64,000 nt of DNA from IMG/VR virus record IMGVR_UViG_3300037309_000179, positions 1 through 64,000 of that record. One strand, given 5' to 3'. Shown here one piece after another: positions 36,444-37,936 of this stretch. The translations under genes were made by a program, and so were the position numbers. Every line of letters starts with the position of its first letter. Within the stretch, counting starts at the first letter, position 1. The notes beneath the pieces are model-generated. The model had not been told where the DNA came from, did not search any database, and was given only the letters and a program-made list of their open reading frames with translations. This DNA comes from a virus.

Positions 36444-36589
36444 GACGCCCGACCGAAGTCGATTCCGCGGCCTGATGTTGGGCGTATCCCGCGAGCGGTG
36501 TCCGGGGTCCAGCCCCGGCCCTGTTTCGCGTTCGGCCTGGCAGTGGCCGTAGGTCTTCTCACACCGGTTTTTGCGGCACGCGAGCGGGG

Positions 36590-37936
36590 TCATTCGCCGA
36601 CCCCGCCCTCCGCCTGGGCCTCCTCAAGGGTTTGGAACCGAATCCCGCCCGCATCGCAGTTCTGCCGCACTCGCTCTCGCAGGGCGAAATAGCGGTAGTG
36701 GCGGGCGTAGGTCTGATCCGTGTCGTCGTACACCACCGCCTCCACGCGATTCCGGCGGAGGAACCCGGCGACGCACGCGGCCACCTGTTTGGTGATCGTG
36801 TCCACGCGGTTGGCGTACTTCGCGCGCGCCGCCGCCCCCGCCTCGACGAACCGCCGCCGCCGGCGGGCCGGCCACCGCTTCTCGGACTTCAGGTCGTCGG
36901 CCCTGGCGTCGCGGTGCCGCTCGTGCCGCTCGCCGTGCCGCAACAGGTCCTCGACCGACTGCTCCGCCCGCTCGTGCGACGACAGCCGGCGGGCCGCCCG
37001 CTGCTCCGCCGACAGGTGCCCGAGCAGGTCGCGGCGGTGGACGACGAACGGGGCGTCCCGCTGCGGCAACTCCACCACCAGCAGCGCCAGCGGGTCCGTC
37101 CGCACCACCGCCGTCACCCCGGACGGCTCGGCCGGCCGCCGCCGGAACCGCCCGGCCGCCATCAGCTTCACCCCGGACAGCTTGCCGTTCGCCATGTCCG
37201 CGCACACCTTCACGTCGCCCAGCACCGCCGCACCCGTCACCAGCGCGTCGAAGTCCCGCACCTGCCGCCGCCAGTCCCGCCCCTGGTCCACCCGCAGCCG
37301 CACCCGCCCGACGCCGGGCAGCAGCACGTCCGCCACCGGGAACCGCCCGCCGGGGTGGTCCTGCCAGGCCAGATCGACCGCCTGCCCCGGCACGTGGACG
37401 GGGAACGGGAACCGGTACGTGCAGGCCGACGCCTCCCCGAGCCACAGCACCGCCACGCGGGTGTTCCGCCCGGCCGCCGTCCGCCCGGACTTCCACTTCT
37501 GCTCCACCGCCCGCATGGTGGCGGCCGCGGCCTGGGTGCTACCGTCCCAGGCGTCCCGGATCGCCGCCGGGCACACCTCGTTCCACCGGCGGTACAGGTT
37601 GAGGGCGGTGAACGGCGGCAGCCGGGTCATGTCCGGCGTCCGCCGGGTGTCGTGCCGCAGGAGTTCGGTCATCGCCCAGTTGGCCAGGTCGGTGCTCAGC
37701 CGCCACGCCCGCAGGAACGGCTCGAAGAACCGCCCGCGGAAGTCATCCGGGGTGAACCAGCCGCGGTCGACAGTGCCCATCACCTCTTTCACCTGGAGGC
37801 GGACGCACCGGTTCACCCACCCGGCGGCCACGCACGCCGGGCACGTCGGCCCGACCCCGGGAACGTCCTTCCACCCCTTCGGCAGGCGGGGCCGTTCGGC
37901 CGCCGCCCCGCACGCCCCGCACCGGAACAGGGTCAT
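36590..37936 (-). CDS. Array-adjacent 448-aa protein: candidate compact TnpB/Cas12-like RNA-guided protein lacking the TNB finger and RuvC-III
   Basis: ATG 37936 (ATGA coupling). N-terminal CGAC-x22-CPAC. The C-terminal block ANRVDTITKQVAACVAGFLRRNRVEAVVYDD...YFALRERVRQNCDAGGIRFQTL is RuvC-II-block-like. The ORF itself is solid; the family assignment is inference. Confidence 0.5.
   Translation of the reverse strand: MTLFRCGACGAAAERPRLPKGWKDVPGVGPTCPACVAAGWVNRCVRLQVKEVMGTVDRGWFTPDDFRGRFFEPFLRAWRLSTDLANWAMTELLRHDTRRTPDMTRLPPFTALNLYRRWNEVCPAAIRDAWDGSTQAAAATMRAVEQKWKSGRTAAGRNTRVAVLWLGEASACTYRFPFPVHVPGQAVDLAWQDHPGGRFPVADVLLPGVGRVRLRVDQGRDWRRQVRDFDALVTGAAVLGDVKVCADMANGKLSGVKLMAAGRFRRRPAEPSGVTAVVRTDPLALLVVELPQRDAPFVVHRRDLLGHLSAEQRAARRLSSHERAEQSVEDLLRHGERHERHRDARADDLKSEKRWPARRRRRFVEAGAAARAKYANRVDTITKQVAACVAGFLRRNRVEAVVYDDTDQTYARHYRYFALRERVRQNCDAGGIRFQTLEEAQAEGGVGE

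Follow-up and report, generated by a model that had tools for sequence, protein, structure and literature searches.

The 146-nt interval between a 448-aa ORF and a CRISPR array in a phage genome is most probably (probability about 0.88) a tracrRNA gene, whose RNA would guide a nuclease-dead Cas12f-type protein of the phage to DNA for binding without cutting. The window analysed here is the 64,000-nt stretch made up of positions 1 to 64,000 of IMG/VR record IMGVR_UViG_3300037309_000179; on its minus strand the ORF is followed by the interval, whose length had been given correctly in a preliminary description of this DNA, and then by six 37-nt repeats (Table 1). Conservation, covariation, complementarity to the repeat, the Cas12f fold and a family-wide truncation of the protein were computed, and from these we infer transcription, processing, pairing in trans, loss of cleavage and the kind of target.

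The source genome is that of a complete tailed phage of 67,166 bp with direct terminal repeats and with terminase, portal, capsid and tape-measure genes; cas1 was absent from this complete genome and from three related phage records. The immediate neighbours of the locus are an ORF without assigned function and a DUF4326 gene, and a sigma region-4-like ORF of 91 aa, scoring below the cut-off in a scan of some of the small ORFs, lies 6 kb off. A Planctomycetota host is suggested by sequence comparison; for one phage gene the relatives come mostly from Planctomycetota assemblies, the phage genome gave a weak TIGR02996-like match below the cut-off, and the dead-Cas12f family is present in 1 of 401 Planctomycetota genomes.

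Table 1. Features of the locus, in window coordinates
Feature	Position	Strand	Basis
Cas12f-fold protein, 448 aa; N-terminal zinc ribbon; ends after RuvC-II; predicted nuclease-dead	36590..37936	-	fold and profile comparison
ATGA-coupled Cys/His frame; neither gene nor conserved coding vestige	36075..36593	-	relatives, codon analysis, profile searches
tracrRNA-like scaffold, conserved, contiguous with repeat 1	36444..36589	-	conservation, covariance model, covariation
CCGCTCGC box, near-invariant, upstream	36580..36587	-	37-50 nt before the model's stem-1 anchor in 13/23 loci
5' anti-repeat, pairs with CACACCGG mid-repeat (36420-36427 in repeat 1)	36560..36567	-	this clade only
Stem 1 hairpin; loop CTGC 36540-36543	36533..36549	-	covariation, pseudoknot pairing
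Helix C (36526-36530 with 36490-36494) enclosing hairpin B (36513-36518 with 36502-36507)	36490..36530	-	covariation
Anti-repeat GCCGCG, pairs with CGCGGC 36439-36444 at the start of repeat 1 (helix S2, crosses S1)	36466..36471	-	covariation
Helix S1 (36481-36485 with 36445-36449) and hairpin S3 (36458-36461 with 36450-36453)	36445..36485	-	covariation
CRISPR array: six 37-nt repeats, five spacers of 36-40 nt	36037..36443	-	orientation from pseudoknot

A covarying RNA complementary to the repeat

The interval is 79-88% identical to its counterparts in four close relatives, as compared with 69-79% for the adjacent coding DNA. Throughout the five close sequences all 31 base pairs of six helices are kept (5/5), 8 of them with changes on both sides; none of 500 shuffles scored as high, and slid controls were 29-44% paired. 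When 23 scaffold copies were compared, the six helices paired better in cognate than in non-cognate combinations, with a permutation p of 2e-5 (the floor of a test that ignores shared descent, helices S1 and S2 having first been spotted by eye on the same loci), and four control region pairs gave p values of 0.2-0.7, that is, no signal. Five loci outside the training set also pass the helix-pairing test. A search with a covariance model recovered the RNA next to genes of the family, also at loci not used for training, and gave no hit in ten unrelated loci; additional IMG/VR loci follow the same RNA plan in very different sequence. Folded as a single sequence, the interval does no better than shuffles (z -0.5), and scanning for sigma-70 promoters gave nothing informative. 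Rfam gave no family above the gathering threshold for the interval, with chance-level matches only (E 1.8-7), and an exact 18-mer scan for the RNA in metagenomes and viral contigs returned 58 chance matches and no new locus. The preliminary description had offered a leader or guide scaffold as one reading of the interval, to be examined by a covariation search and by comparison of homologous loci; the conserved, covarying minus-strand RNA seen in six helices across 23 copies strongly supports that reading.

The interval is complementary to the repeat at three places, two of which covary family-wide and one within the clade. Firstly, the stem-1 loop CTGC is complementary to GCAG at the 3' end of the repeat (36408-36411), and this loop takes 8 different 4-mers among the copies; in 18 of 22 it matches the repeat end of its own locus without a mismatch, as against 16% for non-cognate ends. 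This pseudoknot fixes both the minus-strand orientation of the RNA and the position of the guide directly 3' of the repeat. Secondly, the GCCGCG-type anti-repeat forms at least 5 bp in 22/23 copies. The third contact is made by the CACACCGG patch, which changes together with the repeat in L001 and L004; as a family-wide feature it was rejected, since it was not seen outside this clade. The contacts available in trans are short, namely 4, 6 and 8 bp.

Two patches of the interval had been singled out earlier as anti-repeat-like. The 8-mer CACACCGG is indeed an anti-repeat in this clade, as its covariation with the repeat indicates. The other, GCGGCA at 36573-36578, is present as described; it is not conserved among the relatives, and by sequence comparison it is a chance match, being neither of the two family-wide contacts, which had been missed. 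Taken from one sequence such short patches are weak evidence, because 8% of the 146-nt stretches of the window share a word of at least 8 nt with the repeat and 69% share one of at least 6 nt. In L001 (7386-7422), L002 (3300-3336) and L004 (1440-1477) the repeat-like unit can form a hairpin of its own around CACA, in competition with the 5' anti-repeat, and a folding switch is possible there.

It could be argued that the conserved sequence is mainly a DNA element, such as an array leader, a promoter or an integration site, and indeed it occupies the position of an array leader and carries the near-invariant CCGCTCGC box at a fixed upstream distance. For a leader, however, there is no reason to expect crossing helices with G-U pairs or a loop whose sequence changes along with the distant repeat end, and the complete phage genome is devoid of cas1; we therefore hold this explanation to be very improbable. 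The CCGCTCGC box is found a second time in the interval, at 36491-36498. The upstream copy does not track the changes of helix C in distant loci and may be a promoter element or a 5' motif of the RNA.

Scaffold arrangements, arrays and spacers

The position of the scaffold varies between loci. In L006 and L009 it is found upstream of the gene; in L079, L083 and L088 other sequence keeps it several hundred bases away from the gene; L010 and L076 have it in duplicate, ahead of separate arrays, and L089 has three copies. L007 carries a weakly scoring copy (E 0.57) after the array, with both anti-repeats for the repeat of its own array. An RNA found upstream of the gene, in duplicate or after the array thus behaves as a separate RNA gene. 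A long stem of about 22 bp encloses the detached scaffold of L007 (2460-2625) and could be a processing site or a terminator.

These arrangements bear on a variant of the tracrRNA explanation, compatible with a real RNA, in which the interval acts in cis only, as the 5' part of an omega-RNA-like single guide made of scaffold, repeat 1 and spacer 1, the later spacers being a silent reserve. Scaffold and repeat 1 abut without a gap in most loci, the whole scaffold is duplicated in L010, L076 and L089, and a single repeat-like unit is all that L001, L002, L005 and L075 carry; L005 and L075 are identical over 191 nt and diverge right after that unit. On the other hand, all six repeats of the present array keep the three contact sites, the scaffold of L007 is detached, and the single-unit state is uncertain in L001, L005 and L075, which are Logan contigs in which short-read assembly may have collapsed the arrays, L002 coming from a different source. 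We consider a purely cis-acting RNA unlikely, at about one chance in a few. In the midpoint-rooted protein tree single-unit and array loci are mixed in one supported clade, and all loci outside it have an array or a short-repeat array; judged by sequence, this pattern would suit a collapse from arrays as proposed by Altae-Tran et al. 2023 (PMC10691335), and assembly collapse may lie behind the three Logan cases.

The scaffold has arrays of very short repeats behind it or at its flanks in L079 (3672-4400), L090 (3820-5200) and L092 (3850-5200). The 4-mer TCGG, which is the complement of the own pseudoknot loop in L090 and L092, occurs there in 76 and 43 sense copies, respectively, against 8 antisense copies in 1.5 kb, as if the repeats had shrunk to their pseudoknot contact end. 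The cassette precedes a RecD2-like helicase in two phages (L001, 7470-9893; L002, 3421-6912) and stands beside phage integrase and HTH genes in L005, L075 and the P0009 locus; its presence near a helicase in two phages and near an integrase in three others indicates that it moves between genomic sites.

We looked for spacer targets and found none in the phage's own genome, in the three related phage records or in GenBank phages. In an IMG/VR seed search with spacers 1, 2 and 4 no seed extended beyond chance, and spacer 5 matched 401 genomes of the class Planctomycetia no more than its reversed control did. Spacers 2 and 3 share the 9-mer CCACACGAG (window 36221-36329). Near-duplicate spacers stand inside single arrays in L078 (3948-4170) and L084 (4203-4345), suggesting duplication or recombination in array growth. 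Since the phage has no cas1, spacers must be gained through host machinery or by another route.

The truncated protein and the overlapping Cys/His frame

The predicted structure of the 448-aa protein (mean pLDDT 82.8) matches Cas12f and TnpB structures. Its best VIA match is the natural dCas12f 9n9c (Z 21.4, rmsd 7.2, 330 aligned residues, identity about 13%), Foldseek against AsCas12f gave E 1.7e-14, and the family profile matched OsCas12f with E 5e-15; the PADLOC Cas12f model matches 4 of 12 family members. A profile search puts the family at 927 clusters at 50% identity, 436 of them with E < 1e-30; a protein search of plasmids gave no match, nor did a genome scan with the first alignment.

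When the profile is aligned to OsCas12f, the RuvC-I Asp lines up with Arg279 and the RuvC-II Glu with Asp404, and the protein stops short of both the finger and RuvC-III. All 141 aligned members lack RuvC-III and the TNB zinc finger, and the RuvC-I Asp position is mostly Arg, so that the RuvC D-E-D triad and TNB finger of an active Cas12f are wanting in the family; none of the 141 tails contains CxxC..CxxC, and beyond the last conserved block, GIxF, the tail has a median of 18 aa. An N-terminal zinc ribbon is found in 103/141 members. The protein is predicted from its sequence to be without cleavage activity. The register of RuvC-I is ambiguous by two residues, and a shift would land on Asp281 (67/141); loss of cleavage is accordingly a prediction, and some residual catalysis is possible because RuvC-I could so shift and because the family keeps its YDD motif (113 of the 141 have Asp404). 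A 27-residue insertion that close homologs do not have (window 36941-37021, about residues 306-332) resembles a duplicate of the HER..RAD helix that follows it. A zinc-ribbon match to the TNB family below the cut-off (E 1e-3) at window 22501-22659 (minus strand), 14 kb from the locus, is probably unrelated.

The stop codon of the ORF (TGA, 36590-36592) overlaps an ATG (36591-36593), and the frame so opened reads MTPLACRKNRCEKTYGHC..., both as reported in the preliminary description; it runs through five repeats, giving 172 aa, before its stop at 36075. The same description had proposed that this frame could be a vestige of the missing zinc finger and RuvC-III. Its Cys/His cluster had been miscounted as C-x4-C-x6-HC and is C-x4-C-x5-H-C, and Cys clusters under a loose definition are present in 76 of 2736 49-aa windows taken over all frames. 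The interval as decayed coding sequence of the lost C-terminal part, reused as RNA, is an explanation suggested by its beginning at the stop codon, by a Y-G-H-C stretch kept in frame in four relatives, by an ATGA or GTGA overlap in 5/5 close loci, and by the precedent of TnpB, whose omega-RNA can overlap the gene (PMC10691335). However, the peptide has no match in Pfam or PDB and none to the TNB family PF07282; its variation is flat by codon position (17/49, 18/50 and 14/50), with 14 synonymous against 77 non-synonymous changes, where the real gene, the 448-aa ORF, has about 1:1 and a third-position excess; the first two Cys and RD-x-x-NI are lost in 4/4 close relatives; and the RNA may lie upstream of the gene or apart from it, as in the five loci described above. 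The persistence of YGHC is explained by its lying in stem 1 of the RNA. The vestige is thus unsupported, a recent coding origin of the interval is largely refuted, and we give this explanation only a very small chance. The ATGA or GTGA overlap at the stop (window 36590-36593; L001-L004) is kept even though the frame closes early in three of these loci.

Likewise, a frameshift, a programmed recoding or a sequencing error that joins the two frames into a full-length nuclease, as had also been considered, would agree with the ATGA overlap and with the frame being open in L004 too. Against it, a second assembly (run SRR12687059) is identical across 3521 nt, including the stop codon and the interval; the seven first homologs all stop near the same place or carry unrelated tails, and none of the 141 tails has CxxC..CxxC; and the frame closes early in L001, L002 and L003, three of the four close relatives. 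This reading is refuted, and we assign it next to no probability.

Relation to known systems and proposed mode of action

The guide RNA of SpCas12f1 comprises stem 1, a pseudoknot, a repeat:anti-repeat stem and a head-to-toe stem from the 5' end of the tracrRNA (PMC12255294). The present RNA resembles the type V-F Cas12f1 tracrRNAs of SpCas12f1 and AsCas12f1 (PMC12255294) in its stem 1 with adjacent pseudoknot next to the guide at the repeat 3' end, in its repeat:anti-repeat stem, in a 5' head-to-toe contact (here the CACACCGG patch, in this clade), in its place between gene and array and in its adjacent Cas12f-fold effector; this stem-by-stem equivalence follows the description in that paper rather than a structural superposition. 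It differs in that the anti-repeat is only 5-6 bp long and crosses another helix, that the scaffold runs straight into repeat 1, and that the protein has an N-terminal zinc ribbon but neither TNB finger nor RuvC-III.

Among published groups the nearest is the CRISPR-adjacent dCas12f cluster of Hoffmann et al. (PMC13472631), which, together with the sigma-E-linked dCas12f (9n9c), shares with the present family a C-terminal truncation that removes part of RuvC, an RNA with covariation ahead of the array, single-guide forms akin to the array repeats, and the best fold match. The dCas12f examples of that study are chromosomal, from Bacteroidota and in many cases beside rpoE and HTH genes, and its main text does not mention phages or Planctomycetota, whereas the present family was found mostly on phage contigs and the immediate neighbours of the locus here include no recognised sigma factor gene. 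The path from Cas12f to inactive TnpB drawn by Altae-Tran et al. 2023 (PMC10691335, Fig. 5D) also involves RuvC-III loss, array shrinkage, fusion of repeat and tracrRNA into an omega-like RNA, and neighbouring phage integrases (here L005, L075 and the P0009 locus); in contrast to that path, one family here mixes full arrays, single units, duplicated and detached scaffolds and very short repeats.

With TnpB omega-RNA, TldR and TranC the present RNA has in common a scaffold directly downstream of the gene and a guide at its 3' end, and TldR, as predicted for the present protein, binds DNA without cutting; TranC proteins are active nucleases (bioRxiv 10.64898/2026.03.27.714800). Unlike TnpB, the present protein is closer to Cas12f in profile and fold and has no TnpA beside its gene, and in place of the transposon context and arrayless single guide of a TnpB omega-RNA there is a six-repeat array. 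No transposase was found among the called neighbours of L001-L005. Cas12m is not known to need a tracrRNA. Cas12m (type V-M; PMC11656645) is, as predicted for the present protein, a nuclease-dead type V effector on mobile elements which blocks its targets by binding, but it is larger (about 600 aa) and a weaker fold match (Z 10.1). A literature search that covered mainly openly accessible papers found no study of the present phage family.

In the mechanism that we propose, the interval would be transcribed on the minus strand and fold into six helices, and the RNA would hold the repeat at three points: the stem-1 loop on the last bases next to the guide, the 6-nt anti-repeat on the first bases and, in this clade, the 5' patch in mid-repeat. 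Scaffold, repeat 1 and spacer 1, being contiguous, would make a natural single guide, and the repeat-spacer units further along the array would depend on a scaffold copy acting in trans. The protein, perhaps dimeric like other Cas12f, would bind PAM-flanked DNA matching the spacer and block it without cutting. What it blocks is a matter of judgement because the target searches came back empty: rival phages or mobile elements are about an even bet, repression of host genes is appreciably less probable, and some other role less so again.

More tentatively, and at somewhat worse than even odds, the roughly 900 clusters may form a distinct phage-borne type V subtype in which one scaffold serves as a fused single guide, a detached tracrRNA, duplicated cassettes or a partner of shrunken-repeat arrays, with spacers gained without a phage cas1, and whose complexes would clamp DNA in a programmable way, directed at rival phages or host genes, or would recruit partners through the N-terminal zinc ribbon. 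The kind of RNA is already known, namely a Cas12f tracrRNA; the large phage family that carries it is still uncharacterised, and the more surprising reading, that of a protein vestige, was not borne out. The finding raises the question of how a phage without cas1 fills an array of its own repeat type. Since array, single-unit and detached-tracrRNA states occur side by side, the path from Cas12f to single guides (PMC10691335) can be examined in living intermediates. The analysis also defines a guide RNA, with predictions at the level of base pairs, for a large family without annotation, whose compact proteins (about 400 aa) are predicted to be natural DNA binders.
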